Shown here: one piece after another, positions 4,507-59,867 of the stretch
Numbering within the stretch: position 1 is the first letter of the stretch
Layout: each line of letters starts with the position of its first letter
Origin: Fidelibacterota bacterium
Lineage (GTDB): Bacteria > Fidelibacterota > UBA8477 > JABMPR01
Assembly: GCA_016845065.1 (NCBI GenBank)
Contig: JAERTG010000023.1
Location: 167,553-231,552, forward strand
Length of the DNA: 64,000 nt
Direction of reading: 5' to 3'
Program-made: the position numbers and the translations under genes
The notes under the pieces: model-generated
Databases searched by the model: none
Told to the model about the DNA's origin: nothing
What the model saw: the letters and a program-made list of their open reading frames with translations, nothing else

Positions 4507-4539
4507 ATTACCACTCCTATTTGGTGTATAGTAGATCTC

Positions 4540-5229: not shown

Positions 5230-5252
5230 TGTATTCTCCTAGATTGATTTTT

Positions 5253-11808: not shown

Positions 11809-11832
11809 CGTATTAATTCCATTTACTGTTAA

Positions 11833-12942: not shown

Positions 12943-13069
12943 TGTGTAAAATCCTGCAATATTGGGTTGGTTGTTATCGTAGGTAAATTGTTATGATTTA
13001 GTGATTCAGGGTAACACGTTGCTCCAGGAAATACATACCTGTTTGGTTTGATTAATCCCACAACTCCCC

Positions 13070-15572: not shown

Positions 15573-15593
15573 CCCTGCTATATCATTAACTCA

Positions 15594-20227: not shown

Positions 20228-20228
20228 T

Positions 20229-23096: not shown

Positions 23097-23199
23097 AGGA
23101 AACTTTATTTTTGGTAAATTCACTTTCAGCGAAATCAAAGAAGCAGCTAGCCCCGGCCACACTCACATGTTTCCGGGGCTAAACTGCAGTTATTTCACC

Positions 23200-26628: not shown

Positions 26629-26686
26629 TATGCTTCCTCCTTCTTTGGTTATGTGAATCATTATAATTCCTTCATTCCTAACATAT

Positions 26687-28294: not shown

Positions 28295-28622
28295 TCAGTA
28301 CTCCAGGAAAAATTGATGATTTGTGCAATAAATCTCATTGGTTAATACTATATAAGTCAAATACCAGACCACTTTTAGCCATACCAATACAGAGCGAGAT
28401 AATCAGAAGAGAATATCGATTTTTAAGTCAGTTATTGTAGGATACGGAGGTGTTTGTATAACAAGAGTTTACAAATACAAATTCAGATAATATTCTGTAA
28501 ATTTTTGTCTTAAATTATTTTTTCTTCATGTAGAATTCGAAGGTCTGTAAATCAGGAGAGTCACTTATTATAGGAATAATAATATTATTATTATAATAAG
28601 TGATATATGATAATGATCAGAT

Positions 28623-30068: not shown

Positions 30069-30071
30069 ATT

Positions 30072-32908: not shown

Positions 32909-33215
32909 ATTATTGAAATGATAATAATTGGCATATCAAAACAATACAAGCTCTAACTATTAAATTGCAGGGAAATCAGTCCACGGCTTTGAATGAGAAA
33001 TTAATTTCACCAAAATAGGATATGAAATCCAATCCAATCTCCGCCTTACGAAATCTAAATTGCCATCAATTCAATGGTGTTATTGACATAAACACAAAGA
33101 GTTACACACATTTTCCTGAGAATAGATTTCCGATTAAATAATTTATCTGGATCTTCATCTGCCAAAGATTTCATTTCGCAGATAGTAGAGGGTATAAAAC
33201 TGATGTAGGAGTGGC

Positions 33216-33233
33216 ACCCAATTTGAATACATA
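33216..33233 (+). promoter_or_regulatory. sigma-54-like -24/-12 element (TGGCAC-N5-TTGAA) upstream of the GH3 gene
   Basis: A TGGCACccaatTTGAA element lies about 50 nt upstream of the GH3 ATG. The -12 element has GA rather than the consensus GC, so the match is weak. Confidence 0.2.
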
Positions 33234-33283
33234 AATACCAGGAAGCAATTCTGTATCTAGATATCAACATATGAGGAGTAAAC

Positions 33284-35131: not shown

Positions 35132-35172
35132 ATGTTGCCTAATAGAAATGAAGGAATTATGCTTAAGTTGAT

Positions 35173-38727: not shown

Positions 38728-38733
38728 GAAAAT

Positions 38734-43461: not shown

Positions 43462-44922
43462 ATGATGATACTGGATGAAGTCGGGGTTCTAGAGGAGTGT
43501 GTTGAATTGTTAAGTAAAATAGCTACCAGATGGGGTTCAGAATTTGGATATCGACACATCCTTGTCGTAGCATTCCCACTGATCCTGAGTACTGGTTCCT
43601 GGTCCATACAACAATTTGTTGACCGGATGTTTCTCAGCTGGCATTCTGAAGAAGCACTTGCTGCAGCCATGCCTGCAGGAATCCTCAACTTTGCCTTTAT
43701 CTGCCTCTTTATCGGCACAGTAAGTTATGCCGGAACTTTCGTATCCCAATATGTCGGAGCGCAGGAGGATCACAAAGTAGGTAAGGTTCTATGGCACAGC
43801 TTCTATCTCTCTCTGTTTGGGGCGATAATCTTGTTGCTCGTTGCTCCCTTCTCCAGCGAATTATTCAGCATCGTTGGACATAGCAGTAAACTCCAGATCA
43901 TGGAGAGCACCTATTTCAAAATTCTATGCTTCGGTGGATTGGGACCTATCCTCTCCTCTGCATTTGCTGGATTCTTTACTGGTCAAGGTCGGAATTGGCC
44001 CGTGATGTGGGTAAATTTATTCACAACCACAACGAATCTGATTCTGGACTATCTCTTGATCTTTGGTATAGGCATATTCCCAGAGATGGGTATTGCCGGA
44101 GCTGCTCTTGCTACTATCATCGCTGGTTTTTTATCTATCATCATGTATCTCATTTTGATTTTAAGACCTCACAACGAAACGCGATTCAAGGTTTGGTCAT
44201 CCAGGGCCTGGGACGCTTCTTTCATGAGACGGTTCCTCAAGTACGGTTTACCCAGCGGTGGTCACTTCTTTCTGGAAATCATGGGGTTTACAGCCTTCAT
44301 TCTAATCCTGGGAAGGATTGGTCAGATGGAACTGGCAGCAACAAATATTGCCATAAACATCAATAGTCTGGCCTTTATGCCCATGTTTGGTTTGGGTATC
44401 GCTGTATCAATGATGGTAGGTCAGAACATCGGTGGTGGAAAACCAGAAACTGCTCAATACGCAGCTAATTCGGGAGTTCAGCTTGGAATGGTATATATGA
44501 TCTTCTGTACTTTCCTGTATGTAGGCATTCCACAAGTTTTTGTAGCTCCGTTTGCTGCTTCCACTGAAACATTTGGGATGGCAGTTATTTTATTACGCTT
44601 CGTTGCGGTTTATGCTGTTTTTGACACACTAAGTATTTTGTATTCATCAGCCATTAAGGGTGCAGGAGATACTCATTTTGTCATGCGCATAACAACAGCC
44701 CTTTCCATATTTGTACTAATTATTCCCACTTTTGTCGCTGTGGAGTATTTTGATTCAGGGCTCTATTTGCCGTGGACATTCTGTGCACTATTTATCGTAT
44801 CCATGGGGCTCACTTTTCTTGGTAGATTTTTTGGTGGAAAATGGAAAAATATGAGTGTCATTGAGACACCTGGTTTTCTCCCATCCCAACACCCTGCAAA
44901 TCCAATCTCTCCTGAATTGTAA
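43462..44922 (+). CDS. MATE family efflux transporter
   Basis: There are 12 predicted TM helices with typical MATE length and composition. A candidate -35/-10 promoter (TTGACA…TATTTTAT) lies upstream near 43383. Confidence 0.8.
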   Translation: MMILDEVGVLEECVELLSKIATRWGSEFGYRHILVVAFPLILSTGSWSIQQFVDRMFLSWHSEEALAAAMPAGILNFAFICLFIGTVSYAGTFVSQYVGAQEDHKVGKVLWHSFYLSLFGAIILLLVAPFSSELFSIVGHSSKLQIMESTYFKILCFGGLGPILSSAFAGFFTGQGRNWPVMWVNLFTTTTNLILDYLLIFGIGIFPEMGIAGAALATIIAGFLSIIMYLILILRPHNETRFKVWSSRAWDASFMRRFLKYGLPSGGHFFLEIMGFTAFILILGRIGQMELAATNIAININSLAFMPMFGLGIAVSMMVGQNIGGGKPETAQYAANSGVQLGMVYMIFCTFLYVGIPQVFVAPFAASTETFGMAVILLRFVAVYAVFDTLSILYSSAIKGAGDTHFVMRITTALSIFVLIIPTFVAVEYFDSGLYLPWTFCALFIVSMGLTFLGRFFGGKWKNMSVIETPGFLPSQHPANPISPEL

Positions 44923-45055: not shown

Positions 45056-46390
45056 ATGTATCAGGAGTATCACAAACTGACTCATCCCAAAATAAAGGGA
45101 ATAGGGCTCAGCCTGATTATTTTGCTCGGATTGTCCTTCTCAAATTGTTCAAACAACCAGGTCGCATTTGTTAAAGTGGTCTCTGACAGCACAGGCCATA
45201 AACTCACTGTCAATGATACAGATTACTTTGTGAATGGGATGAATTGGGACTACTACCCCATCGGAACCAATTATAAATATAAGTTTTGGGAACAACCTGA
45301 TGATTTCATTAAGTCTGTCCTTGACGAAGAAATGAAAGCACTGCATGACATGGGGGTAAACACTATCCGTCAATATGTTGGTGTACCACCTCACTGGGTT
45401 GAATACATCTACGATACATATGGTATTTTCACAGTCCTGAACCATAGCTTTGCTCGATACGGGATAGAGGTGAATGGTAGCTGGGTGGCTAATGTGGATT
45501 ATGGAGACCCTGCGACACGGGAGATAATTCTTAACGATGTCATTCTGATGGTTGAACAATTTCGCTATGTCCCTGGAGTATTGATGTGGCTATTGGGGAA
45601 TGAAAATAACTACGGATTGATTTGGGAATCGTCTGAGACTGGAGATATGCCGGAAGCACGGGACAGTCACTTCCAGCAAGCACGCGACTTATACTCACTA
45701 TACAATGAAGCGATCAGGATCATCCATATCAGGGATAATCGAAGGCCCGTGGCCATAGCCAATGGCGATGTTCAATTTATAGATCTCATTGTTGAGGAAA
45801 TTGAAAATCTAGATATTTTTGGAACCAACAGTTATCGCGGAGCCTCATTTGAGGACTTGTTCAAGCTTGTAAATGATAAACTGGATATTCCCTTACTCCT
45901 CACTGAATTTGGTGCAGATGCCTTTCATGCTCAAGAACAAAGGGAAGACCAGAGCTCACAAGCGCTAGTCCTCTTGGAAAATTGGCGCGAGATCTATCTG
46001 CAAGCTGCAGGAAATGGTGATGTTGGTAATACAATCGGTGGTCTTACATTCCAATTTAGCGACGGTTGGTGGAAATCAGGTCCTGACGATAAATTGGATA
46101 TACATGATTCCACAGCCTCGTGGTCAAATGGAGGCTACTCCGACGATTTCACTCCTGGCGTCAATAATATGAACGAAGAATGGTTTGGGATTTGTGGACG
46201 TGAAGCTTCTAAAACGCCAAACAGGGATATTCTACGCCCCCGTTTGGCATATTACCTTCTCATGAAGATTCACGCTCTCGATCCCCTCCTGTCATCTCAG
46301 GGAGCCCCAGAAATTAACAAATTCTTCTCAGAATTAGCTGAGACGAATCTGGACTCTCTCAGCTCAATTTATAAGTTTTACAATAATTGA
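45056..46390 (+). CDS. clan GH-A (beta/alpha)8 glycoside hydrolase lipoprotein, family uncertain (GH2-TIM/GH158/GH35-like)
   Basis: The lipobox is LSFSNC. The acid/base-like motif is LLGNENNYG and the nucleophile-like motif is LLTEFGAD. The protein is only 444 aa and lacks the GH2 N-terminal domains. Confidence 0.45.
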   Translation: MYQEYHKLTHPKIKGIGLSLIILLGLSFSNCSNNQVAFVKVVSDSTGHKLTVNDTDYFVNGMNWDYYPIGTNYKYKFWEQPDDFIKSVLDEEMKALHDMGVNTIRQYVGVPPHWVEYIYDTYGIFTVLNHSFARYGIEVNGSWVANVDYGDPATREIILNDVILMVEQFRYVPGVLMWLLGNENNYGLIWESSETGDMPEARDSHFQQARDLYSLYNEAIRIIHIRDNRRPVAIANGDVQFIDLIVEEIENLDIFGTNSYRGASFEDLFKLVNDKLDIPLLLTEFGADAFHAQEQREDQSSQALVLLENWREIYLQAAGNGDVGNTIGGLTFQFSDGWWKSGPDDKLDIHDSTASWSNGGYSDDFTPGVNNMNEEWFGICGREASKTPNRDILRPRLAYYLLMKIHALDPLLSSQGAPEINKFFSELAETNLDSLSSIYKFYNN

Positions 46391-47685
46391 ACCTCTCAGA
46401 TAAAAAGTTGTCACCTCTTTCTGGTGTTGGGTATCGACAGGTAAATATTTCAGGGTTTCGCAAGGTTGATCGGTGGGAAGCCAGGCCATTGGCGGATTCG
46501 GTCCTCCACCTGATATGGCGAGAAAAGCAAATTTCCAGAGCCGAGATAGCACGCCAAATAGGAATATCCCGCTCAACTGTGACTGAGGTGATACGAGATT
46601 TACTCAATACGGGTTATGTCAAGGAAGTTGGGGCTGGGGTTTCCAGCGGTGGTCGAAAACCCATTGTTCTTGAATTCCAGAATAACCATAAACTGATTCT
46701 TGGTATCGATATCGGTGCTACCCATGTTTCTGTGGCTCTACTCAATCTCGGTGGTGAGTTATTGTCATTCAATCGGCAGAGTCATTCTGTCCGAAATGAT
46801 CCGGAGGGGACGCGTAGTCTGGTCTTCAAGCTTTGCGATGCCTCTCTTAGTCAAGTTAACAACGGTCAGCAACGTCTATTAAGTATTGGTGTAGCCCTCC
46901 CCAGCCCTGTAGATCCAGATCACCCCGAATGGGTGTCAGAAGTAGTAATTCCTGCATGGCGCGGGAGGAATGAATTGGATATACTACATAGCCATTATGG
47001 TGTTCCTGTTTATGTAGACAATGATGCCAATCTTGGTGCCCTGGCCGAGTATCGTTGGGGTGCTGGTCGTGGATGTAAGGACCTGACCTATGTCAAGATT
47101 GGGTATGGACTCGGTGCAGGTTTTGTACTCAACGGTGAAATCTATCGCGGTTCCACAGGAATTGCCGGTGAAATGGGACATATGACTGTAGGAGAAAGCG
47201 ATACCCTATGCGAATGCGGATTGAATGGATGTTTAATCACTCTTGTAGGTGGAAAAGCCATGTCTGCCAGAGCTTCTGAGTTGTCAGATAAGTATCCTGA
47301 GAGTCCGTTGACAAAAGGTGATACTGATCTGGAAGCTATTGAAGCTGCAGCTCATAAACATGATGAATTAGCCCTCCAGCTTTACAAAGAAACAACTGAA
47401 TATTTGAGTCTAGCTATTACAGGTTGGATCAATATGATGAACCCCAGTAGAGTCATTCTTGGGGGATCGATGCAGGAGTTCCAGAATCGTCTATTGGACC
47501 CAGTCCGTGAAAAGATCAAGGCATGTTCCATCGTAGGATCAGTGCCTATCACCGACATACGGGCAGGTGAATTAGCACATCAGGCCGAAAGTATTGGTGC
47601 AGCGACTCTGGCCCTGGAAGGCGTCTTTTCAAATCCAGGTTTTTATCGAAATCAAATTGAACCACTAGAGGCATCGAATGTCTAG
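46387..47685 (+). CDS. ROK-family transcriptional regulator (HTH + sugar-kinase-like domain)
   Basis: The N-terminal HTH is ISRAEIARQIGISRSTVTEVI. The glycine-rich motif is ILGIDIGATH. The Zn motif is CECGLNGC. A TTG start overlaps the upstream stop by 4 nt. Confidence 0.8.
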   Translation: MNLSDKKLSPLSGVGYRQVNISGFRKVDRWEARPLADSVLHLIWREKQISRAEIARQIGISRSTVTEVIRDLLNTGYVKEVGAGVSSGGRKPIVLEFQNNHKLILGIDIGATHVSVALLNLGGELLSFNRQSHSVRNDPEGTRSLVFKLCDASLSQVNNGQQRLLSIGVALPSPVDPDHPEWVSEVVIPAWRGRNELDILHSHYGVPVYVDNDANLGALAEYRWGAGRGCKDLTYVKIGYGLGAGFVLNGEIYRGSTGIAGEMGHMTVGESDTLCECGLNGCLITLVGGKAMSARASELSDKYPESPLTKGDTDLEAIEAAAHKHDELALQLYKETTEYLSLAITGWINMMNPSRVILGGSMQEFQNRLLDPVREKIKACSIVGSVPITDIRAGELAHQAESIGAATLALEGVFSNPGFYRNQIEPLEASNV

Positions 47686-47777
47686 TAGACATACTGTTTG
47701 TACTGTTACTGACTATATATGTACTGAAATATGAATCTCTCTCTCTTTAAGAATTGATCAATGAAGGAGTCTGGCAC

Positions 47778-49727
47778 ATGAGTGCAAAAACACACTACAA
47801 AACTGCACGAGAAGATCGAATTTCGCTGAAACAAAAATCAGCATATGCTGTGGGTATGCTGGTGAACAATCTCCAAGCAGCAGCACTACCCGCCATGGTA
47901 GTTATCCTCAACCTGGGACTCGGAATGGATGTCTTATGGGTGGGTCTCATCGGAGCAATCCCCCGCATATTTGATGCAGTCTCGGATCCGCTGTTGGGAT
48001 ACATTTCTGACAATACCAGGACTCGCTGGGGCAGACGCCGACCTTTTATCTTTGCCGGTGCTATCCTTGCAGGAATTATTTTCGCCCTCATGTGGCAATT
48101 ACCTTCTGGGTACATTGATATTCTTGATAAGACACCCATCAAGCAACACCAGATCATTACTGCAGGTGAGTCGGATGCGGTCTTCAATGATGCAGGTGGT
48201 GTATTTTCGGAATATTCCGAGACTTCCATGCCTGATGCAAAATTCACCTTATATGGTCCAGAGGCACTGGCAATAAATCTGGGTTCATCTCTGGCCACAA
48301 ACCTGGATGGCTTCCCTCAGGTTGAGATAAATGTGGATATTCCGGAGTATGAGTCCTTCGAGGTTGTTTTCAATGAATCTGCTGGTGAGTCCTACTCAAT
48401 CCTCCTAACCGAAAACATGTCCGAGGATGGAAAGGGAAATCTATACAAGTTCAGTCTAGCAGATCTTGCCAAAAGCCCCCTTCCTGGAGATCAAACAGGC
48501 AACGATGTTCTAGACATTCAATCGCTGGGTAATATTTCTATACAGCTTACAGGGTTGGTTGGAACTGGAACGGCTACCATTCATTCTGTCAAGCTGCGAA
48601 AAAGTGAAAAATTCTTTGTCACTTATTTCTGGTATTTCATGGCCATGTCCATCCTCTTCTTTCTGGCATACACAGTATTTGCTACCCCTTTCGTAGCCTT
48701 TGGTTACGAAATGACGCCTGATTATCATGAACGTACTCGCCTGCACGCTTTTGCCAACACGGTGGGTCAGTTGGCCTGGTTGGGTGTTCCCTGGTTTTAC
48801 GCCATCATGTCCAGCACTTTATTCAGGGATACTGTACATGGTGCCCGCACCCTGGCGATCGCCGTGGGTATAATTGTCGCTGTATTCGGAATAATTCCTG
48901 CCATTTTCCTCAAGGAAAGACAAACTCTGGAACCCGTAAAAAATGCCGGTAAGAGTATTGGGCAAAACATGAGCGAGTTTTTCAAGGGAATTGTTACCAC
49001 CTTCAAATGTAGTCCATTTGTGAAATTGTGTGGTGCAACCTTTCTCGTTTTTAATGGGTTTCAACTGGGCATGTCCTTCTCCATATATGTCATGATATAC
49101 TATCTGTTTGGTGGTAATGATGGTGATGCGGGAAAACTCATGGGCTGGTTTGGGATGCTTACTTCCATTGCTACCCTTGGTGTAATTCCATTAACTGGAT
49201 GGATTGCTACCAAGATTGGCAAACGTAAAACATTTCTGCTTACAATTTCAATTTCAATCCTAGGGTATGCGATCAAATGGGTTGGGTATAATCCTGATTA
49301 TCCATACTGGCTCTTATATGCTGCACCTTTTGTTGCTTTTGGTACCGGCTCATTGTTTACCCTCATGGGATCCATGATATCGGATGTGTGTGATTATGAT
49401 GAACTTGAAACACATCAACGTCGCGAAGGTGTTTTTGGAGCTATCTACTGGTGGATGGTTAAAGTCGGGATGGCTCTGGCTGGCCTCCTCACAGGGATTT
49501 TACTCAAGGTCTCCGGATTCGATGTGGCACTGGGAGCAGCCCAATCAGAAAATACTTTATTCCTGATTAGAATCTTTGATGTGGGTATACCCCTCCTCAC
49601 CTCTCTGATAGCCCTATGGATTATTTCCACCTACAAACTCACTGAAGTGAAAGCCTACGATATTAGAACACAGCTCGAGGCCAGACGCGGAAAAGTCGCA
49701 ATGGCAGATGCTTCAGAAAACGATTAA
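47778..49727 (+). CDS. GPH-family (MelB-like) MFS sugar:cation symporter with a soluble insertion of about 180 aa
   Basis: The GPH signature is DAVSDPLLGYISDNTRTRWGRRRPF. TM helices are interrupted by a hydrophilic segment at about residues 115-290. The start was chosen at the ATG preceded by the RBS aaggag. Confidence 0.75.
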   Translation: MSAKTHYKTAREDRISLKQKSAYAVGMLVNNLQAAALPAMVVILNLGLGMDVLWVGLIGAIPRIFDAVSDPLLGYISDNTRTRWGRRRPFIFAGAILAGIIFALMWQLPSGYIDILDKTPIKQHQIITAGESDAVFNDAGGVFSEYSETSMPDAKFTLYGPEALAINLGSSLATNLDGFPQVEINVDIPEYESFEVVFNESAGESYSILLTENMSEDGKGNLYKFSLADLAKSPLPGDQTGNDVLDIQSLGNISIQLTGLVGTGTATIHSVKLRKSEKFFVTYFWYFMAMSILFFLAYTVFATPFVAFGYEMTPDYHERTRLHAFANTVGQLAWLGVPWFYAIMSSTLFRDTVHGARTLAIAVGIIVAVFGIIPAIFLKERQTLEPVKNAGKSIGQNMSEFFKGIVTTFKCSPFVKLCGATFLVFNGFQLGMSFSIYVMIYYLFGGNDGDAGKLMGWFGMLTSIATLGVIPLTGWIATKIGKRKTFLLTISISILGYAIKWVGYNPDYPYWLLYAAPFVAFGTGSLFTLMGSMISDVCDYDELETHQRREGVFGAIYWWMVKVGMALAGLLTGILLKVSGFDVALGAAQSENTLFLIRIFDVGIPLLTSLIALWIISTYKLTEVKAYDIRTQLEARRGKVAMADASEND

Positions 49728-49733
49728 GGGAAA

Positions 49734-51446
49734 TTGACAATTATGATCAACGAAAGAATTAAACCACAAGCTTTTTCAATTTTGAGTCTGGCTATACTGT
49801 TTATGTCTTGCAGTCACTTACCAGAACCTACACCTCAAGAACCTCTTCAAAAGCTCACATCAACTTCTGAAATTCTGCTCACTTCAGCCAGTGGGAGTAA
49901 AATTGCAGCCCAGAAAAATGTCAAATTCAAATCTGGGCAGGCTGAGGGAGTTGTCCTCCGGGTTTTCCCTGATAGCGTTAAACAGACCATTGATGGTATA
50001 GGAACCTCGTTCACCGAGTCTTCAGCCTTCGTCCTGGCACATCTAGAGTCAGAACACCGCCAGGAAGTCATGCAAAAGATTTATGGGACTGATGGTGCCA
50101 ATTTCTCCCTCACCCGCACCCATATTGCCTCCTGTGATTTCTCCGTCGAAGGAAAATATTCCTACGCTGAGCAACCTGGTGATACTGCACTTACTTCGTT
50201 CACCATCGCTGAGGATACAGAGGGATTTCCAGTCAGCAAGTACCCTGGCATCAAGGATGAGAAGTACGACCTCCTCCCCATGATTCAGGAAGCCTTAAAA
50301 ATCAAACAAGACCAGCAAGATTCTGATCTCCGAATAATTGCATCGGCGTGGACTGCCCCACCATGGATGAAAGATATTGAAAAGTACTATCAGCCTATGA
50401 CAGCCGATAATGGCTGGCACGGCACTGGCGGGACCCTGAAACCTGAATATGTCAGCACGTACTCTGATTACATCCTTCGCTACCTCGAGGCTTACAAGGC
50501 AGCCGGTGTGAACATCTGGGGTCTTACTCCCGTAAATGAACCCCATGGTAATAATGGCCAGTGGGAAAGCATGAACTTTAGTCCCGAGACACAGAGCGAG
50601 TTTGTCCAGAAACATCTTGGTCCTGGTTTACGGGCAGGAGGTTTTGGAGATGCTAAACTTCTGATCTTTGATCAGAATCGTGATGGTATTGAAGAATGGA
50701 CAGATGTGCTCTTCCCAGCTGATAACGAGCATAAATACATTTATGGAATTGCAGTTCACTGGTATGAGAGTACATACAAAGTTTATGAGGATATTTTTGA
50801 CCGAGTACATGAAAAGTATCCTGAGTACTCAATCGTTCACACAGAGGGATGTATTGATGATCTTGGGAAACCGGCTCCTGATGATTGTACAGATCCAGTT
50901 GGCAGAACAGAAACAAACTGGTTCGACAATGATGATTTCTGGTGGTCTAAGTCCGCCTCTGATTGGGGATATGCAGTTCCATGGACTCCTGGGAATGGCA
51001 AAGATCATCCCCTTTACGTCCCAGTACATCGATATGCCCGCAATATCATAGTCAGCCTTGATCACTGGATGACCGGTTGGGTTGATTGGAACATCGTGTT
51101 GGACAGTCAGGGTGGTCCGAATCATGTCGGTAATTTTTGTGGTGCCCCAATCATGATAGACACAGCTACCCAGCATGTGTATTACACTCCCATATATTCC
51201 GTTTTAGCTCAGTTTAGCCGGACAATACGACCTGGTGATAAAGCACTCAAAACAGTGGTCAACAAAGCAGGTCTAAATGAGGATGATATACATTTCTGCG
51301 CCACTATTAATGCAAGTGGATTGATGAGTGTGCAGGTTTTGAACACATCTTCTTCTCCAATTCACTACAAGCTGCAAGTGGGAGATGAATTTGCTGATGT
51401 AATCATCCCAGAAAATTCAGTACAGACAGTGAGAGTACAGCTGTAA
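49734..51446 (+). CDS. GH30 glycoside hydrolase lipoprotein (beta-1,6-glucanase/glucosylceramidase fold)
   Basis: The ASCDFS motif matches GBA 'MASCDFS'. The acid/base motif is VNEPHGN. The nucleophile region is HTEGC. The lipobox is LFMSC. Confidence 0.8.
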   Translation: MTIMINERIKPQAFSILSLAILFMSCSHLPEPTPQEPLQKLTSTSEILLTSASGSKIAAQKNVKFKSGQAEGVVLRVFPDSVKQTIDGIGTSFTESSAFVLAHLESEHRQEVMQKIYGTDGANFSLTRTHIASCDFSVEGKYSYAEQPGDTALTSFTIAEDTEGFPVSKYPGIKDEKYDLLPMIQEALKIKQDQQDSDLRIIASAWTAPPWMKDIEKYYQPMTADNGWHGTGGTLKPEYVSTYSDYILRYLEAYKAAGVNIWGLTPVNEPHGNNGQWESMNFSPETQSEFVQKHLGPGLRAGGFGDAKLLIFDQNRDGIEEWTDVLFPADNEHKYIYGIAVHWYESTYKVYEDIFDRVHEKYPEYSIVHTEGCIDDLGKPAPDDCTDPVGRTETNWFDNDDFWWSKSASDWGYAVPWTPGNGKDHPLYVPVHRYARNIIVSLDHWMTGWVDWNIVLDSQGGPNHVGNFCGAPIMIDTATQHVYYTPIYSVLAQFSRTIRPGDKALKTVVNKAGLNEDDIHFCATINASGLMSVQVLNTSSSPIHYKLQVGDEFADVIIPENSVQTVRVQL

Positions 51447-51506
51447 GACCCCGATATCGATTGTGATAAACGGTTAATAAGAATTTTATGATTAGAGGTA
51501 TTTAGA

Positions 51507-54500
51507 GTGAAATCTTCTCGTAAACCCAGCTACCAGTTGAACAAGAATGGTGATTTTCTTATAAGTAACTACAATTCAGCTAAGCCATTCTCAAGCTTTT
51601 TCCCAGGAATCGCAGGAAAAATGGGCATACCCATGTGGGTGTTCTATGTGAATCGCGGTCAGGGGATCTGCAGTATGGGTGTCCAGGACAAGGAGAATCC
51701 TATTATGGAATTTCTTCCTGCGAATTGGGCTTATCAATTGGCACCAACACAGGGGTTTAGAACCTTTTTAAAATTTCCTGAGGGTTCAGGAGTCAACTTT
51801 TATGAACCGTTTCAGGATCACTACCAGGATAAGGAAATTGAGCGTACTCAGACCATGCATATTTCACCCTCCCACCTGGTATTGGTAGAAGAAAACAAGA
51901 CTCTCGGGCTTCGTTTTACCGTTGAGTATCATTCTGTCCCTAATGAAAGTTACGCTGGTCTCATAAGAAATCTGCATATAACAAATTTAAACAACATTGA
52001 TGTATCCTTCGAGGGACTGGATGGTCTCCCACTCATTGTTCCTTTTGGCATTGGCAATTTCGGCTTGAAAAATATCCGCCGTTTGATGGAAGCATTTGTT
52101 GAAGTGAAAAACTATGACGCGAAAGCCCCATTGTTTAAGGCCAAAGTTAAGCCCGCTGATCGGCCCGATGTTGAAATGCTGGAACGCGGTAATTTTTATG
52201 TTGGATTTGAGAACATTCACAAGGGGTTGAAGAAACTAACCCCCATCGTTGATCCAGAGCGAATCTTTGGTACTCACAACGATTATATTTATCCTGATTT
52301 TTTCCTGAATACACCTTTTGATGCCCTTCTGGATCATCAGGCATTTGAGAATCGATATCCCTCAGCAATGAGCAAGTTTTCAACAGAATTAGGCGCCGGT
52401 GAGACATATACGGTGAGCTCTGTAATTGGTCATGCTGAATCTCAGGACGCTTTGAACTCCCAGTTACCAAACATCATGAGAAAAGACTATTTCTCCAAAA
52501 AAGCTCAGGAGAGTATCAACATTATCGATGAGTTGACTCAGAAAAATCTGGTGATAAGCCGTGAGCCTATTTTTGACATGTATGTCAGACAAAATTTTCT
52601 GGATAATGTGCTTCGTGGTGGTTTTCCCTATACTCTGGAAGGAAACCAGGCTAAATCTGTACTCCATCTTTATTCGAGAAAACATGGTGATCTTGAGCGC
52701 GATTATAATGACTATCGTATCACTCCCTCTCACTATTCCCAGGGTAACGGCAATTTTAGGGACATCAATCAAAATCGTCGCTCTGATTTATTGTTTAACC
52801 CTGATGTGGGCTCCGGAAACCTGGAACATTTTGTCAATCTCATTCAACTCGATGGGTTCAACCCCTTGGTACTAAAGGAAGTTAGGTACAGGGTTGAAGA
52901 TTTGAATTCTGCCACCCAAATAGTTAACAGTCATTTTAACTCAGGATTATCGTTTGAACTCCTCACCTTCCTCCAGGAGCCTGTCAGTCCAGGAGAATTG
53001 CTGGATTTTCTAAGGCAAAAAGACGTTGTGTTTGATGACAATGCTGATGTCTTATTGGGTGACCTCCTGGGAAGCTGCAAAAAAATCAATGATACAGATT
53101 TTGCAGAGGGATACTGGTCAGATCATTGGACTTATAACCTAGACCTTCTTGAAAATTATCTGAGCATTTATCCTGAGAGACTGAGACATATTCTATTTGA
53201 TTATCAGGAATTCACATTTCACGATAGTGATCATCGTGTACTTCCTCGTTCTGATAAATATGTAATCTGGGACGGTAAAGCGATGCAGCTAGATGCTGTT
53301 TTTCATGACAAAGAGAAAGCCACTCTCATCGCTTCCAGGAGCAAAGATCAACACCTCATGCGAGATGCTCATGGGCTGGGTCAAGTGGTTCAGACGACAC
53401 TTTTTGTGAAATTACTCAGCATTATCACCAATAAAATCGCTTCTCTGGATCCTTCAGGTATAGGTGTCGAAATGGAGACAGATAAGCCCAATTGGTATGA
53501 CGCATTAAATGGCTTGCCTGGTGTACTTGGTTCAAGTCTCAGTGAAACTATAGAAATCAAGCGTCACGCTGAATTCATTTTATCTGCTATGGATGAAATC
53601 CATCTTGCAGAAGAGATAGCTCTATACATTGAGCTACATGAATTCACCAGTATGGTATTCGCGGCACTCTCGAATGGTGGGAATGATTATACATATTGGG
53701 ATACCGTAAGCTCTGCAAAGGAAGAGTATCGTTCCAAAACCAGGATGGGTATCCATGGATCTGAAATAACTGTAAGTCAGGATTGGATCCAGGAGTTTCT
53801 CCAGGCTGTTGTAGGTAAGGTTGATCAAAGTATTGAGAAAGCGCTCTACTCGGATACGGGTATCCCTGGAACCTATTTTTATCATGAAGTCGCGGATTAT
53901 CAGCTTATCGATCGTATTGATGATCCGGGTACGAAGCATCCGAAACTCAATGGACGAGGCTTCCCTTGTTACCAGGCGAACTCCTTTAAATTAGTACGTC
54001 TACCTCTTTTTCTTGAGGGTCCCGTCCACTATCTCCGCACACTTCCAGAACGAGATATGGCCAAACAGCTGGCTAAAGATATTAAAAATAGTGGTCTTTA
54101 TGACAACGAGCTGGAAATGTATAAGGTTAATGCTGAATTGAGCGACCAACCCATGGAAATTGGTCGTGCAAGGGTGTTCTCGCCGGGATGGTTTGAGAAT
54201 GAATCGATATGGTTGCACATGGAATACAAATATATGCTGGAGCTACTTCGCAATGGTTTGTATGAAATTTTCTTCCAGGATTTCAAAAAAGTGTTCATCC
54301 CCTTTCTTGACCCTGAAGTGTACGGCCGCAGCATTTTGGAAAATTCATCCTTTCTGGTGAGCAGCGCAAATCCAAATCCTGACCTTCATGGTACTGGATT
54401 CGTCGCCCGACTTAGTGGCGCAACAGCTGAATTCATTCATATCCTCATGCAGATGGCCATGGGGCCAAGAGCTTTTTCAATCAATTCTACAGGTGAATTG

Positions 54501-54824
54501 AACTTTGCGCTGAAGCCCATGCTTCCCTCCTGGTTGTTTACGGAAGCAGAGCAAAAAACAACCGTCCTGATGGATGGAGTTCAGACTTCAATCTCAACGC
54601 CAGCCCACAGCTTCACCTTTATGCTGCTTAGTAATATACTGGTGACTTATCACAACCCCAAGCAGAAGGACACTTTTGGTCCCGATGGGGTTACACCTCA
54701 GGAATGGCTTCTTACGGACCCTAAGGGCCAATCTCAGAGCTTTCAGGGCTCCCTTCTGGGAGGGGAGCAAGCGGAGCAAATTAGATCGAAACAGATTAAA
54801 CGTATTGAGATCACACTAGGTTGA
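51507..54824 (+). CDS. large cytoplasmic protein, candidate beta-1,3-glucan/laminaribiose phosphorylase (GH149/GH161/GH94-like)
   Basis: The protein is 1105 aa with no signal peptide. It is flanked by GH30 and GH17 in one operon. Its size and N-terminal beta-sandwich-like start fit family GH149. Catalytic motifs were not confirmed. Confidence 0.35.
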   Translation: MKSSRKPSYQLNKNGDFLISNYNSAKPFSSFFPGIAGKMGIPMWVFYVNRGQGICSMGVQDKENPIMEFLPANWAYQLAPTQGFRTFLKFPEGSGVNFYEPFQDHYQDKEIERTQTMHISPSHLVLVEENKTLGLRFTVEYHSVPNESYAGLIRNLHITNLNNIDVSFEGLDGLPLIVPFGIGNFGLKNIRRLMEAFVEVKNYDAKAPLFKAKVKPADRPDVEMLERGNFYVGFENIHKGLKKLTPIVDPERIFGTHNDYIYPDFFLNTPFDALLDHQAFENRYPSAMSKFSTELGAGETYTVSSVIGHAESQDALNSQLPNIMRKDYFSKKAQESINIIDELTQKNLVISREPIFDMYVRQNFLDNVLRGGFPYTLEGNQAKSVLHLYSRKHGDLERDYNDYRITPSHYSQGNGNFRDINQNRRSDLLFNPDVGSGNLEHFVNLIQLDGFNPLVLKEVRYRVEDLNSATQIVNSHFNSGLSFELLTFLQEPVSPGELLDFLRQKDVVFDDNADVLLGDLLGSCKKINDTDFAEGYWSDHWTYNLDLLENYLSIYPERLRHILFDYQEFTFHDSDHRVLPRSDKYVIWDGKAMQLDAVFHDKEKATLIASRSKDQHLMRDAHGLGQVVQTTLFVKLLSIITNKIASLDPSGIGVEMETDKPNWYDALNGLPGVLGSSLSETIEIKRHAEFILSAMDEIHLAEEIALYIELHEFTSMVFAALSNGGNDYTYWDTVSSAKEEYRSKTRMGIHGSEITVSQDWIQEFLQAVVGKVDQSIEKALYSDTGIPGTYFYHEVADYQLIDRIDDPGTKHPKLNGRGFPCYQANSFKLVRLPLFLEGPVHYLRTLPERDMAKQLAKDIKNSGLYDNELEMYKVNAELSDQPMEIGRARVFSPGWFENESIWLHMEYKYMLELLRNGLYEIFFQDFKKVFIPFLDPEVYGRSILENSSFLVSSANPNPDLHGTGFVARLSGATAEFIHILMQMAMGPRAFSINSTGELNFALKPMLPSWLFTEAEQKTTVLMDGVQTSISTPAHSFTFMLLSNILVTYHNPKQKDTFGPDGVTPQEWLLTDPKGQSQSFQGSLLGGEQAEQIRSKQIKRIEITLG

Positions 54825-54864
54825 ATCAGTAACAACTAGACAATAATTCTTAAACGGGGAAAAA

Positions 54865-55950
54865 ATGAAACATTCACGATATTTAAAAATCTTTACAGTA
54901 GTTTTGACTGGCATGATCATATCATGTCAACCCCAAGTACCTGCAGGACCTGAAATGGATAATATTCCTGTTCCAAATGAGAACGCGGTTAATCAAGAAA
55001 AAACTTTCACTACCAGGCCATTCGTGCCTTTTCTAGATGGTAGATGGATCGGTAATGCTATTTCTTTTGGATGCTATCGTGAAGGTCAAGCTCCCCACGT
55101 GAAGGGACCCTCTGAGGAGGAAATCCTAGAAGATTTGAACATACTTTCAAAACATTGGAATCTTGTAAGAGTTTATGGTTCTGATGACGATAGTGAACGT
55201 GTGTTAAAGGTGATTCATGAGCATCAACTCCCCATGAAGGTGATGTTGGGAATCTGGCTTGAGAATGAGACAAAACGTCCAGAACGAAAACCTCATAATA
55301 TGGAGCAGGTTCGACGCGGTATTGAATTAGCCAATCGATTTCCCAAAGAGGTGATCGCAATTAATGTTGGGAATGAAACTCAAGTTGAATGGTCCTGGCA
55401 TGGAATGGAAATGGAAAATCTGATCAAGTATATCAGGACCGTGAGAGAAAGTGTGCCGCAGCCGGTAACAACAGCTGATGACTATAATTTTTGGAACAAG
55501 GATCACAGCCGGATGGTGGCTAAGGAGATCGATTTTATTGGTCTTCATGCATATCCCCTATGGAATGGAAAAACTCTAGAGAAATCTGTCGCCTGGATAG
55601 ATGCGATTTACAAATCCGCCAAAGCTTTTCACCCAGATCGGGAGATCATACTCAGTGAAACAGGCTGGGCAACAAAACATGACCCATCGAAACAAGGTCC
55701 AGGAGAAGAGGGTGCACTGGTCAAAACGGAGGTCAGTGTAAAGGCTCAGCAATCCTTCCTTGTGGAATTCAATAAATGGGTGGAAGAGCAGCAGGTAACC
55801 GTTTTTCTTTTTGAAGCCTTCGATGAACCATGGAAAGGTGGCGGTCTTGAATCTGGACCAGATGTAATGGAAAAACACTGGGGGGTTTTCAACGAAGATC
55901 GTACCCCTAAAGAATCCTTGAAAGCTTTCCTAAATACTAAGAAACATTAA
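54865..55950 (+). CDS. GH17 endo-beta-1,3-glucanase lipoprotein
   Basis: The GH17 signature is ILSETGWAT (nucleophile). The acid/base motif is INVGNE. The lipobox is IISCQ. Confidence 0.8.
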   Translation: MKHSRYLKIFTVVLTGMIISCQPQVPAGPEMDNIPVPNENAVNQEKTFTTRPFVPFLDGRWIGNAISFGCYREGQAPHVKGPSEEEILEDLNILSKHWNLVRVYGSDDDSERVLKVIHEHQLPMKVMLGIWLENETKRPERKPHNMEQVRRGIELANRFPKEVIAINVGNETQVEWSWHGMEMENLIKYIRTVRESVPQPVTTADDYNFWNKDHSRMVAKEIDFIGLHAYPLWNGKTLEKSVAWIDAIYKSAKAFHPDREIILSETGWATKHDPSKQGPGEEGALVKTEVSVKAQQSFLVEFNKWVEEQQVTVFLFEAFDEPWKGGGLESGPDVMEKHWGVFNEDRTPKESLKAFLNTKKH

Positions 55951-56013
55951 TCTAAACATAGTTTCTACGAAGATTTAACGACTCCCTTCGCCAGGAGCAC
56001 ATCGCATTGAAAG

Positions 56014-58344
56014 GTGTCAAACATGAAAGCAGGATTAGTCTTTAAAATAATACTGGCAACGATCCTAGGGTTGAGTGGATCTCTAGTTGCTCAAGTAGCC
56101 CCCATTAATTTTGAAGCTGAAGGTATTGGAGCAGATTGGACGTGGACATCTTTTGAAAACGACACAAATCCTCCTCTGACCATTGTTTCAAACCCTGGTG
56201 CAGACACTGTGAACGCCTCTGCAATGGTAGCTTCCTACACCACATTAACCACAGGTCAACCCTGGGCTGGTTTTGAATCTCTTCACGGTGCAGATATCGG
56301 ACCCTTCAGTTTTGATGTGACCAATAGTACGATTAAGCTTATGGTATACAAAACCGTTATCAGTGATGTCGGTGTTAAATTCGCCGAAGCCAATGGTGAA
56401 GCACAGCCAGAGGTAAAGGTTGCAAACACCTTGATCAACCAATGGGAAGAGCTGACATTTGACCTTTCTGGCAGCATCGGTGCTGGAATAACTGGCATAG
56501 TTGATCAGATCATTATTTTTCCCGACTTTGACCTGGTTGGAAGAACGACAGACAATACTTGTTACATAGATAATATCACTTTCTCCGGACAGGATCTACC
56601 CCCAGCGCCTGCTGCTCATGCACCATTACCTACAGCTCCTGCAGATGATGTCATTTCAGTATTCAGTGATTCATATACAAATCTTGCCCAAACCAATTTC
56701 AATCCTGGTTGGGGTCAGGAAACGGTAATGTCCGAGGTGATGATAGAGGGTAATAACACACTGCTTTACTCAAGCTTGGACTACCAGGGTATAGAGCTGG
56801 GAAGTGCTCAGGACCTAACTGAAATGGATTCGGTGCATGTGGACTTCTGGAGCGCTAATTCAACCGAATTGCAGATCTTTCTCATCAGTCAGTCCTCAGG
56901 AGAACAGGCCTACTCACTACCATTCGCTACTGAAACCTGGGTAAGTACCTACGTTCCCCTGTCTCATTTCACCGATCTTGGACTCTCAATAAGTGATATT
57001 TTCCAGCTTAAGTTTGTAGGCAATGGCGATGTGTATATTGACAATATTTATTTTGAAGGCGAAGGTGGTGGCCTGGAACCAACCCCCTATTTCCCAATCG
57101 ACTTTGAGATTGATGGTCATGGAGCTGACTGGACCTGGACTACCTTTGAAAATGGTGCCAACGATCCACTTGTTATCGGTACCAATCCAAGCACCACTGG
57201 AGTAAACGCTTCTGCAACCGTGGCATCAATGACAACCATGACTACGGGTGCGGCTTGGGCTGGTGTGGAGTCTCAACATGGTGCAGACATCGGTACTTTT
57301 TCACTTGATGCCAGCAATAGCACAATAAGTATCATGGTGTACAAACCCATTCTTAGTGATGTGGGGATTAAACTGGCAAAGCCTGATGGTTGGTCCATGG
57401 GAGAAATAAAAGTAGCCAATTCTGTTATTAATGAGTGGGAAGAGTTGACCTTCGATTTTTCATCACAGATGCAAGACGGCTATGATCAGATCGTCATTTT
57501 CCCAGACTTTGATCTTGCTGGCAGAACCACTGACAATACGTGTTACTTTGACAACATCACTTTTTCTGGTCAAGTGGTGCCAGCATCTCCTGTGGCTCAC
57601 GCTCCAATCCCTACATTGGCAGCAGAGGATGTTGTTTCGATATTTAGCGATTCCTATCCAAGCACTGCAGGTGTCAATTTGAACCCTGGCTGGGGACAGG
57701 CAACGGTGGTAAGTGAGGTAGAAATTGAACAAAACAATACTTTAGTTTATTCTGATTTGAATTATCAGGGCACAGAATTTCAAGCCATTGATGTAAGTGG
57801 TATGACTCACTTTCACCTGGACTTCTGGACAGGAAACTCAACTGCCCTGAATTTCTTTGTCATCAGTCAGACCCCTACAGTTGATAGTGATTACTTCACT
57901 CTCGCCATCACACCTGAACAGTGGATTAGCTTGGATATCCCCTTGACTGCATACCCAAATGTTGATCTAGCAGATGTGTTTCAGTTCAAGGTCGAAGGAA
58001 ATGGAACGATTTATTGGGACAACTTTTACTTCTATTCAAATACGGTTGCTGTTGATGATGAGAGAAAAGAGGTGATTCCCAGTGAATTTATTCTCGAACA
58101 GAATTTCCCTAATCCTTTCAACCCTGGAACCTCAGTAAACTACAGAATCGCTGAATCCGGGTCTGTAACACTCAAGATTTATAACATTTTGGGGCAAGAG
58201 GTTGTGACCTTGGTTGATGGATTTGCGTCACCTGGCTATTATAGTACTCATTTAGATGCGAACCACCTGGCCGCTGGCACCTACTTCTATGCGCTTACAT
58301 CTGGAAATCAGAGAATTGTTAAAAAGATGGTGTTGATCAAATAG
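56014..58344 (+). CDS. secreted non-catalytic multidomain protein ((A-B)x2 + T9SS CTD), candidate laminarin-binding surface protein
   Basis: A signal peptide is present. Two tandem units of about 340 aa each contain a CBM4/6-like domain (…DNTCY.DNITFSG) plus a 150-aa domain shared with ORF 23200..26628. The C-terminus is …FPNPFNPGT… CTD. Confidence 0.6.
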   Translation: MSNMKAGLVFKIILATILGLSGSLVAQVAPINFEAEGIGADWTWTSFENDTNPPLTIVSNPGADTVNASAMVASYTTLTTGQPWAGFESLHGADIGPFSFDVTNSTIKLMVYKTVISDVGVKFAEANGEAQPEVKVANTLINQWEELTFDLSGSIGAGITGIVDQIIIFPDFDLVGRTTDNTCYIDNITFSGQDLPPAPAAHAPLPTAPADDVISVFSDSYTNLAQTNFNPGWGQETVMSEVMIEGNNTLLYSSLDYQGIELGSAQDLTEMDSVHVDFWSANSTELQIFLISQSSGEQAYSLPFATETWVSTYVPLSHFTDLGLSISDIFQLKFVGNGDVYIDNIYFEGEGGGLEPTPYFPIDFEIDGHGADWTWTTFENGANDPLVIGTNPSTTGVNASATVASMTTMTTGAAWAGVESQHGADIGTFSLDASNSTISIMVYKPILSDVGIKLAKPDGWSMGEIKVANSVINEWEELTFDFSSQMQDGYDQIVIFPDFDLAGRTTDNTCYFDNITFSGQVVPASPVAHAPIPTLAAEDVVSIFSDSYPSTAGVNLNPGWGQATVVSEVEIEQNNTLVYSDLNYQGTEFQAIDVSGMTHFHLDFWTGNSTALNFFVISQTPTVDSDYFTLAITPEQWISLDIPLTAYPNVDLADVFQFKVEGNGTIYWDNFYFYSNTVAVDDERKEVIPSEFILEQNFPNPFNPGTSVNYRIAESGSVTLKIYNILGQEVVTLVDGFASPGYYSTHLDANHLAAGTYFYALTSGNQRIVKKMVLIK

Positions 58345-58915: not shown

Positions 58916-59371
58916 TTATGGTATTAGGGCGGTGTTTTGACCGCTACTATTATAAAGGCTTATTGCCCCATCATGAGTTGTAGTATGTGAAAGCGAAATG
59001 GTTTCTTGACCGCTATTATTATAGAGACCTATTGCCCCGCCATGGGCAGTAGTATGTGAAATATTAATGGTGTTTTGACCGCTGCTATTATAGAGGTCTA
59101 TTGCCCCATCATCGGCTATAGTGTGTGAAAGCGAAATGGTTTTTTGACCAGTACTATTCAAGATATCTATTACCCCACTGCCATTTGAGGTGGTTACGGC
59201 CATTATACGATTCCCTTTTTTATCGATAAAATTTATCCAGCCCCTCTTGGGAATATTTATGTCACCCACTGTAATACTATCAAACGTTGTATTTGTTGCC
59301 CCTATTGACATAAATCCAATCACAGCAACTAGAAACCCAATTATTACACTTCTAGGGTCTAACTTTTTCAT
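58916..59371 (-). CDS. small membrane-anchored/secreted protein with about 22-aa tandem repeats (ILNSTGQKTISLSHTxxxDGAIxLYNSSGQ)
   Basis: There is an N-terminal hydrophobic anchor. Four imperfect repeats are encoded by DNA repeats of about 66 bp. Confidence 0.45.
   Translation of the reverse strand: MKKLDPRSVIIGFLVAVIGFMSIGATNTTFDSITVGDINIPKRGWINFIDKKGNRIMAVTTSNGSGVIDILNSTGQKTISLSHTIADDGAIDLYNSSGQNTINISHTTAHGGAIGLYNNSGQETISLSHTTTHDGAISLYNSSGQNTALIP
58928..59190. repeat. about 4 tandem direct repeats of about 66 bp (coding, inside ORF 58916..59371)
   Basis: The gaccgct…attgcccc…gtgtgaaagcgaaatg units recur with roughly 80-85% identity. Confidence 0.65.
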
Positions 59372-59504: not shown

Positions 59505-59867
59505 TGGGGCAGTAATAATGAAGTAGCCATCGTCTTGTTGCGCTTTGTAGCTGTCTACGCCTTGTTTGATACGTTAAGCATACTGTACTCATCTGCGATC
59601 AAAGGAGCTGGTGATACCCACTTTGTCATGCGAGTGACCACAGCACTATCCGTTTTTGTTTTGATTATCCCAACCTACATCGCAGTAGAATATTTTGATG
59701 CCAACCTGTATCTCCCCTGGACCTTCTGTGCCCTATTTATTGGGGGAATGGGTCTTACATTTCTAGGCAGATTTTATGGTGGAAAATGGAAGAAAATGAG
59801 TGTTATTGAGACTCCCGGATTCCTACCATCTCAACATCCTGCTAATCCCATTTCTCCTGAAGTATAG
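59505..59867 (+). pseudogene. truncated 3' fragment of a MATE efflux transporter paralog
   Basis: The encoded 110-120 aa are about 88% identical to the C-terminus of the intact MATE gene at 43462..44922, which is …LLRFVAVYAVFDTLSILYSSAIKGAGDTHF…SQHPANPISPEL. Nucleotide identity is roughly 75-80%. An in-frame stop lies just upstream of the homology start. The agcgactag direct repeats lie 40-70 bp further upstream. Confidence 0.7.

Follow-up and report, generated by a model that had tools for sequence, protein, structure and literature searches.

Among the pools of carbon fixed in the sea, laminarin ranks with the largest, and most of what is understood of its consumption comes from Flavobacteriia. 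The closest described gene sets are the 'variant 1' laminarin polysaccharide utilisation loci (PULs) of marine Bacteroidota, which are arranged as GH149-GH0-GH30_1-GH17, sometimes with a GH158 gene (the GH numbers being glycoside hydrolase families; PMC10108472; also PMC6246565, PMC6484121). A locus of apparently similar design is carried by a 64,000-nucleotide stretch of contig JAERTG010000023.1 from a Fidelibacterota bacterium (hereafter the window), and its gene 51507..54824, on the forward strand, encodes the 1105-amino-acid (aa) protein that is the subject of this study. An earlier description made from the letters of the DNA (the sequence-only reading) had proposed a GH149-type β-1,3-glucan phosphorylase. 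Sequence and fold comparisons place the protein instead in GH161, a sister family of GH149 within clan GH-Q.

GH161 phosphorylases are an already known type of enzyme, the family having been defined in 2019 and structures having been released in 2025. PapP from Paenibacillus polymyxa and THA_1941 (TaBGP) from Thermosipho africanus are β-1,3-specific phosphorylases (PMC6484121; bioRxiv 10.1101/2025.04.05.647330). PapP needs substrates with a degree of polymerisation (DP) of at least 3 and cannot cleave laminaribiose, whereas GH149 enzymes continue the degradation as far as glucose (PMC6484121); THA_1941 acts on laminaribiose, i.e. from DP≥2 (bioRxiv 10.1101/2025.04.05.647330). According to the 2019 paper, GH161 is found mainly in Gram-positive bacteria and heterokonts, together with ABC transporters (PMC6484121), and a laminarin-induced locus of Bacillus weihaiensis holds a GH161 gene with GH30 and GH16 genes (PMC6484121). 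The family displays a four-part plan, i.e. an N-terminal β-sandwich, a helical linker, an (α/α)6 domain for catalysis and, C-terminally, a jelly roll.

The protein of the window is read here as a cytoplasmic inverting GH161 glycoside phosphorylase, of the EC 2.4.1.97 type of β-1,3-glucan phosphorylases, with a role in the use of laminari-oligosaccharides, and this reading is given a probability of about 85%. In a phmmer search against the PDB, the protein matched chain 9qqk_A over query positions 12-1022 (E-value 7.6e-216, 722 bits), and all matches corresponded to two versions of one protein only, 9qqk/9sr2 and 9h8v. A profile made from 40 homologues matched the GH161 chain with 999 bits, positions 13-1103 being aligned with positions 4-1035 of the chain. 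By contrast, the GH149 structures 6hq6/6hq8 were not found by phmmer at E≤1, and neither these nor GH94 chains were found by the profile search of the PDB at E≤10. The NCBIfam equivalog model for GH149 (NF058639), whose cut-off is 1150 bits, gave a partial match with a score of 119.3, and the Pfam search gave no match at E≤0.01, including none with a GH94-type domain. The names of PDB entries 9qqk, 9h8v, 9sr2 and 9fz9 are taken from the depositors' titles alone: 9qqk and 9sr2 appear as 'gh161 phosphorylase / GH161A', with 9qqk further described as 'GH161 phosphorylase in complex with beta-1,3 glucooligosaccharide', and 9h8v appears as 'Cellobiose phosphorylase'. The protein shares 41% identity with the solved GH161 chain (380 identities over 918 aligned positions). 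As the published identities within the family are 37% between PapP and OcP1 (PMC6484121) and 44.9% between THA_1941 and PapP (bioRxiv 10.1101/2025.04.05.647330), such a value is compatible with GH161 membership.

The fold points to the same family. An AlphaFold2 model (pLDDT 79, pTM 0.80) was compared with solved structures using Foldseek, and GH161, GH149 and GH94 provided the top matches, all with a probability of 1.00. The GH161 structures 9gy9 (titled 'bacterial beta-1,3-glucan phosphorylase from family GH161') and 9qqk reached TM-scores of 0.84-0.89 with 36% identity, the GH149 structures 6hq6 and 6hq8 (Pro_7066) a TM-score of 0.68 with 14% identity, the GH94 laminaribiose phosphorylase structures 6ggy and 6gh3 a TM-score of 0.62 with 13% identity, and various other GH94 structures 0.45-0.50 with 10-12%. 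The model successively shows an N-terminal β-sandwich, a helical linker, an α/α barrel region and a C-terminal β domain; because of this layout and of the global fold match at 0.84-0.89, the protein can be assigned the four-part GH161 architecture. GH94 itself is recovered neither as a Pfam domain nor as a chain by sequence, and the fold match to it is remote (TM-score 0.45-0.62, 10-13% identity). The ranking GH161 >> GH149 > GH94, obtained by phmmer, profile and fold, serves here as a proxy for a clan-wide placement. Among the other large families that had been named as possible better matches, GH36, GH116 and GH78, only GH116 appears, with TM-scores of 0.18-0.31, and all three were rejected. 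Confidence in the model is lowest (<50) at residues 27-58, 68-80, 391-404, 412-416, 661-663, 886-899 and 932-969, precisely the best conserved loops, which build the active site; this may reflect an active site completed by the second subunit of a homodimer, or a shallow alignment (40 sequences).

Along its full length, the protein is collinear with the solved bacterial GH161 structures released in 2025 (9gy9, 9qqk/9sr2, 9h8v), from which it differs by about 60 additional residues, small insertions (including 13 aa near 814-826) and a divergent C-terminal tail. PapP and THA_1941 belong to the same family as this protein by transitivity. The PapP termini implied by its published primers (MQPY..., ...LERSL) were found in none of the 270 proteins examined. 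Thirteen loci matching a gene-specific 18-mer of the published PapP reverse primer do not encode any homologue and were dismissed as chance matches, and the 'GH161' strings of a Maribacter paper turned out to be GH16_1x subfamily names. Like the window protein, the GH149 enzymes Pro_7066 and EgP1 display the clan fold and its W-x-D/RD/Glu/His machinery, and they share its probable type of reaction and genomic role (PMC6771811, PMC6484121, PMC10108472, PMC6246565), but in them the catalytic domain is flanked by two additional insertions, the domains Dom1 and Dom2 (PMC6771811). The GH94 laminaribiose phosphorylase PsLBP (6ggy/6gh3) shares the clan, the overall domain plan, the β-1,3 linkage, the RD motif and the Asp used in catalysis (PMC6771811); it is, however, about 200 residues shorter and specific for a disaccharide.

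The residues expected in the active site are known from characterised members of the clan. In THA_1941, the catalytic loop is W623-N624-D625, D625 being the catalytic residue; E840 lies at the glucose moiety, R345, R373, S891 and S913 lie at the phosphate, and mutants of R345, R373, D625 and E840 are inactive (bioRxiv 10.1101/2025.04.05.647330). A phosphate-site histidine of GH161 has also been noted (PMC6484121). The corresponding elements of GH149 Pro_7066 and of GH94 are a WND loop (W651-N652-D653), an RD motif (R470-D471), E951 and H959 (PMC6771811). The putative counterparts in the window are as follows.

52677..52781, + strand: R391 to R425, cluster of arginines with the R418-D419 'RD' motif, predicted to recognise the sugar 1-phosphate
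53493..53501, + strand: W663-Y664-D665, catalytic W-x-D loop with D665 as predicted general acid; its equivalent in the alignment to the solved GH161 chain is W628-Y629-D630
54195..54218, + strand: E897 to H904 (ENESIWLH), predicted -1 subsite glutamate and phosphate-site histidine
54348..54416, + strand: S948 to S970, predicted phosphate-binding serines, spaced as in THA_1941

Conservation was scored in an alignment of 83 homologues with 35-55% identity. Of the residues known from mutagenesis or structures, eleven are invariant, and W663, D665, R391, R398, R418, R425, E897 and H904 are all kept in 83/83; the other three are almost invariant or conservatively substituted, D419 being kept in 81 of the 83, while position 948 is occupied by 81 S and 2 T, and position 970 by 70 S and 13 T. 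Within the W-x-D loop, the middle position is variable (N in 32 homologues, Y in 27 and C in 20), the W-Y-D variant being common to the window protein and the solved GH161 chain. The latter also carries identical residues at W663-Y664-D665, R418-D419, R391/R398, E897, H904, S948 and S970, and R425 is conserved in it as well. Furthermore, the spacing between E897, S948 and S970 (51 and 22 residues) is exactly that between E840, S891 and S913 of THA_1941, so that R345, R373, W623/D625, E840, S891 and S913 of this enzyme all have conserved, spacing-matched counterparts; the counterpart of R345 would be R391 or R398, as judged from spacing only. From these alignments, the set of catalytic and phosphate-binding residues of a phosphorylase appears intact in the window protein. 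The shared fold and the presence of the catalytic Asp, the RD motif and the phosphate-site His place it in clan GH-Q, and to this extent the class of enzyme proposed by the sequence-only reading, a phosphorylase of the GH94 clan acting on β-1,3-glucan, is borne out by alignment and model.

The protein is encoded by a single uninterrupted open reading frame (ORF) with a GTG start, far longer than would be expected by chance in DNA of 42.6% GC. Homologues with E≤1e-10 number 6007, full-length, among the candidates scored, and the family comprises 611 representatives after clustering at 50% (E≤1e-30). The GTG is the first start codon downstream of the preceding in-frame stop, a GAGG lies 8 nucleotides (nt) 5' of it, alignments with homologues of 1105-1113 aa begin at residue 1, and the NCBI copy of the protein (P0391) is 1105 aa long; the GTG start is thus well supported. 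The conserved family sequence begins at about residue 9. Two other database gene calls, P0001 (1067 aa, from M39 on) and P0008 (1039 aa), are truncated versions, and in loci L003-L005 tblastn found the full conserved N-terminus 5' of the called start. The GH161 family is often annotated in public databases with an N-terminus cut short in this way, a conserved segment FSSFFPGIAGK.GIP.W lying upstream (51507..51623 in the window, and in L003-L005). Non-ATG starts seem to be common in the source genome, GTG or TTG being used by the GH161, GH30, MFS, ROK and type IX secretion system (T9SS) protein genes. The protein has no N-terminal hydrophobic signal segment (best 15-residue Kyte-Doolittle mean of 1.13 within the first 65 aa), whereas the N-termini of its neighbours reach 2.0-2.3. 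The sequence-only reading had described a 1105-aa ORF without signal peptide located between GH30 and GH17 genes, and the ORF listing, the Pfam matches and the hydropathy agree with this description. The GC and GC3 values of the gene match those of its neighbours, so that a recent distant horizontal transfer of the gene, which was considered, has no support.

The gene lies within a series of seven genes extending from 45056 to 58344. As these genes are on the same strand and separated by only -4 to 68 nt, they probably form an operon.

45056..46390, + strand: opening gene of the operon, distantly GH158-like, 444-aa lipoprotein-like TIM-barrel glycosidase (weak Pfam Glyco_hydro_2_C match; signal peptide with a Cys after it)
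46387..47685, + strand: NagC/Mlc-like regulator of the ROK family with an N-terminal winged helix-turn-helix (Pfam ROK 3.2e-55 and HTH_24/MarR; NCBIfam NagC 7.4e-58, below cut-off)
47754..49727, + strand: sugar:cation symporter of the GPH/MFS_2 type, with a likely start M9 at 47778 (Pfam MFS_2 1.4e-62, in two stretches)
49734..51446, + strand: GH30, endo-β-1,6-glucanase-like, with a lipoprotein-type signal peptide (Pfam Glyco_hydro_30 7.7e-62)
51507..54824, + strand: probable GH161 β-1,3-glucan phosphorylase (sequence, profile and fold matches to GH161 chains of the PDB)
54865..55950, + strand: GH17 β-1,3-glucanase or transglycosylase, with a lipoprotein-type signal peptide (Pfam Glyco_hydro_17 1.5e-08)
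56014..58344, + strand: 776-aa secreted protein with a T9SS C-terminal sorting domain (Por_Secre_tail 2.4e-09)

The ROK gene overlaps the preceding gene by 4 nt. A scan for promoters and terminators between 44.8 and 59 kb returned counts at the level of shuffled sequences (25 versus 28.9, and 12 versus 12.1). The family profile of the first gene product, which has more than 2000 homologues mostly annotated as 'hypothetical' or 'glycosidase', has as top PDB matches 6pal (BuGH158, 1.5e-06) and 9oro ('GH158', 2.7e-06); this product may be a divergent GH158-like laminarinase and is a candidate endo-β-1,3-glucanase. The GH30 protein matches the NCBIfam endo-1,6-β-glucanase BT3312 (3.3e-53, below cut-off), and the GH17 protein matches 4wtp (4e-18) and 6fcg ('GH17 family', 5.6e-17) in the PDB. 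The body of the T9SS protein, about 690 aa, has no family, its sole other match being PKD-like (residues 369-485, 8qx6, 1.5e-06), and locus L001 has a 1467-aa LTD/T9SS protein at the orthologous position. Possible roles of the 776-aa protein are those of an enzyme or of a surface glycan-binding protein.

This gene order is found, identical, in Marinimicrobia relatives whose proteins are 60-85% identical. A metagenome-assembled genome of Zixibacteria carries the GH161 gene followed by GH17 and GH16 genes, and the genome of another lineage carries MFS, GH30 and GH17 genes, two other genes and GH161. The operon thus compares with the Bacteroidota laminarin PULs in that it apparently follows the same design with GH161 filling the GH149 slot; because GH149 occupies the equivalent place beside GH30 and GH17 in these PULs, the initial GH149 guess is understandable. 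The comparison with PapP and THA_1941 shows likenesses, i.e. a predicted cytoplasmic role after an oligosaccharide importer and a location beside GH30/GH16-type enzymes (PMC6484121), as well as differences. Indeed, the genes of PapP and THA_1941 are accompanied by ABC transporters and GH1/GH3/GH94 partners, mostly in Gram-positives or Thermotogae, whereas the partners of the Marinimicrobia-type gene studied here are an MFS symporter, lipoprotein GH30 and GH17 enzymes, a TonB-dependent receptor and T9SS enzymes.

Several of these partners are encoded upstream, in a region (9847..40824) that, from the Pfam and NCBIfam matches used to label its genes, is a large β-glucan utilisation island. Its proteins include enzymes associated with carbohydrate-binding modules (CBM).

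9847-11808, - strand: GH5 with CBM6
11833-12942, - strand: GH16 with T9SS signal
13070-14164, - strand: GH16
14052..15572, - strand: 506-aa lipoprotein without family match, near the receptor
15594-16691, - strand: PorV-like protein
16688-20251, - strand: 1187-aa protein without family match, next to the receptor
20229-23162, - strand: TonB-dependent receptor
23200-26694, - strand: T9SS protein
26687-28294, - strand: SSF symporter
28623-32908, - strand: sigma54 two-component system with an SBP-like protein
33284-35131, + strand: GH3 with a signal peptide
35173-38727, + strand: CotH/LTD T9SS protein
38734-40824, - strand: GH5 with CBM9

No SusD-type Pfam match was seen among the proteins of this island. 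The GH30, GH17, GH3 and GH158-like proteins are probable lipoproteins, as judged from signal peptides that end near a cysteine. The suggestion, made from the sequence, that the protein serves a laminarin pathway at its cytoplasmic end is consistent with the missing signal peptide, with the GH30, GH17 and GH158-like partners in the operon and with the GH16, GH3 and TonB-dependent receptor genes elsewhere in the window.

Starting from the observed family membership, residue conservation, lack of signal peptide and conserved neighbourhood, and borrowing the biochemical steps from characterised homologues, the following route can be proposed. Laminarin would be cut outside the cell or at its surface by the T9SS-secreted GH16 and the GH158-like lipoprotein, as their families and sorting signals suggest, and the TonB-dependent receptor would take the fragments across the outer membrane. 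In the periplasm, lipoproteins would trim them, GH30 taking off the β-1,6 branches and GH17 and GH3 shortening the chains, by analogy with Formosa enzymes. The resulting short linear β-1,3-gluco-oligosaccharides would be imported by the GPH/MFS symporter. In the cytoplasm, GH161 and inorganic phosphate would then attack the β-1,3 linkage at the non-reducing end, the leaving group being protonated by D665 of the W-x-D loop and the phosphate being held by R391/R398, R418, H904, S948 and S970, which would release α-D-glucose 1-phosphate and a chain one unit shorter. Glucose 1-phosphate would enter glycolysis through phosphoglucomutase, one ATP being saved per glucosyl unit, and the ROK/helix-turn-helix protein would probably regulate the operon. 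By analogy with homologues, the phosphorolysis of imported laminari-oligosaccharides to glucose 1-phosphate thus remains the most likely reaction, as first proposed.

Several points weigh against this reading. The nearest characterised or solved GH161 proteins are only about 41% identical, the close relatives of the protein are all annotated as 'hypothetical protein', and AlphaFold2 confidence is low in the conserved active-site loops, so that the evidence on residues is sequence-based. In addition, neither a cytoplasmic β-glucosidase nor a GH94 enzyme nor a phosphoglucomutase is encoded within the window. If the enzyme were PapP-like (DP≥3), laminaribiose would therefore accumulate; as no laminaribiose-cleaving gene is found in the window, either the GH161 enzyme acts down to DP2 or this step is encoded elsewhere. 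Finally, the two GH5 enzymes with CBM6 or CBM9 in the island mean that the locus may target more than pure β-1,3-glucan.

The last point also bears on the alternative that survives best, although it is rather unlikely: a GH161 enzyme whose physiological substrates are other oligosaccharides, either mixed-linkage β-1,3/1,4, β-1,6-branched, β-1,2 or β-1,4. The GH5 and GH16 enzymes of the window, whose best NCBIfam matches are β-1,3-1,4-glucanases, would fit such a substrate, as would the modest identity to characterised members and the ability of PapP to use β-linked disaccharide acceptors whatever their linkage (PMC6484121). THA_1941 was indeed first reported as a cellodextrin phosphorylase, but this claim has been corrected to β-1,3 (PMC6484121, PMC8140972). 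Specificity for β-1,3 linkages is common to the two characterised GH161 enzymes and the solved complex, and the conserved GH30, GH17 and GH158-like neighbours are the signature of a laminarin locus (PMC10108472).

It is very improbable that the enzyme works mainly in the direction of synthesis, building an intracellular β-1,3-glucan store from glucose 1-phosphate. The reaction is reversible, GH161 enzymes make long β-1,3 chains in vitro (PMC6484121; bioRxiv 10.1101/2025.04.05.647330) and heterokont GH161 proteins are tied to chrysolaminarin metabolism (PMC6484121). However, the gene belongs to an operon of exported degradative glycosidases, with an importer and a sugar-responsive regulator, that is conserved across lineages. 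The high phosphate concentration of the cytoplasm also favours phosphorolysis.

The chance that the protein is, after all, a GH149 β-1,3-oligoglucan phosphorylase like Pro_7066 or Euglena EgP1 is slight in the extreme. The sizes are similar (1105 versus about 1130-1160 aa), clan and fold are shared (6hq6, E 6.8e-38), the NCBIfam GH149 model matches weakly and in part, and the genomic slot is that of GH149 in Bacteroidota laminarin PULs (PMC10108472, PMC6484121). Nevertheless, the score lies far under the cut-off of the model, and for GH161 structures the bit scores are about six times better and the TM-scores much higher. Equally implausible is a hydrolase or transglycosylase in which the chemistry of a phosphorylase has been lost, an idea inspired by (α/α)6 families with hydrolases that appear as remote fold matches (GH15, GH63, GH65, GH116), since the predicted phosphate-site residues listed above are kept and strongly conserved, and no hydrolase is described for GH161, GH149 or GH94 in the literature examined.

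Compared with MelB-type transporters, the operon's symporter has about 200 aa more. In its AlphaFold2 model, a MelB-like core (TMt 0.80-0.82) is interrupted between transmembrane helices 3 and 4 by an all-β domain of about 170 aa (pLDDT 80-90), which corresponds approximately to residues 114-285 of the 657-aa ORF (nt 48093-48608). The fold search with the whole model was dominated by MelB and other MFS cores, and the insertion taken alone gave no relative in the PDB or Pfam, sequence-profile search included. The domain is conserved in different phyla, in proteins of about 650 aa from Marinimicrobia, Cloacimonetes, Planctomycetota and others, some relatives reaching 826-921 aa. It is probably on the periplasmic side and may be a built-in module that captures oligosaccharides, a possibility for which the MFS-GH17 fusion of Formosa offers a comparison (PMC6246565).

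The operon is bracketed by a diverged direct repeat (family D1) that corresponds to the 3' end of a MatE gene.

44590..44889, + strand: left copy, within the intact MatE gene 43462..44922
59535..59834, + strand: right copy, within an orphan C-terminal MatE fragment, 59523..59867 (tblastn 87% over 114 aa)

The copies share 74-78% identity in DNA and 87% in protein, lie 14,945 bp apart and enclose the whole operon from the GH158-like to the T9SS gene. The repeat comprises the last 114 codons of the gene, and neither copy shows homology beyond the stop codon. With the MatE proteins of the relatives L003/L004 the orphan copy shares 91% identity, versus 87% with the resident MatE. Judged from these sequences, the repeat looks like the trace of a recombination in which the operon cassette was inserted, or exchanged among related genomes.

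The right copy lies in a 2.7-kb region (58.4-61.1 kb) otherwise without long ORFs, which also contains a tandem repeat with a 69-nt unit (58931-59176; three overlapping 108-nt copies, 81-83% identity) located inside a small ORF without family match (58916..59371, - strand). At the other end of the window, and unrelated to GH161, a VTC-domain protein (7897..8664) is encoded beside a DUF4956 protein (7202..7885), both on the - strand, near an ABC/MacB-FtsX/HlyD efflux set (2077..6509).

The closest named homologues of the GH161 protein come from Candidatus Marinimicrobia / Neomarinimicrobiota. Among the 120 closest database clusters, all those named by their source are called 'hypothetical protein' and none carries a Pfam domain. 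The proteins from Marinimicrobia, Cloacimonetes and Zixibacteria form a clade whose members share at least 54% identity and are about 35-45% identical to other GH161 proteins. A tentative and still doubtful extension is that this clade is a distinct subgroup that replaces GH149 in Gram-negative laminarin loci of the TonB/T9SS type, paired with a GPH transporter bearing a β domain, and that its members degrade to laminaribiose or glucose or tolerate β-1,6 branches without a cytoplasmic β-glucosidase. The difference between GH161 and GH149 may indeed matter for function, given the limit of PapP at DP≥3 and the degradation to glucose by GH149, although THA_1941 does cleave laminaribiose. If the proposed extension is true, uncultured Marinimicrobia would have a phosphorolytic route for laminarin that has not been described before.

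The enzyme type being known, what is mildly new is the presence of GH161 in a TonB/T9SS/MFS locus of Marinimicrobia, the breadth of this poorly annotated clade and the apparent substitution of GH161 for GH149. For annotation, predictions of PUL substrates that list only GH149 would miss thousands of homologues that are annotated as 'hypothetical protein' and lack a Pfam domain. More largely, the locus indicates that Marinimicrobia relatives possess a complete laminarin pathway resembling that of Flavobacteriia, in which the ATP-saving phosphorolytic step would be performed by GH161 rather than by GH149.

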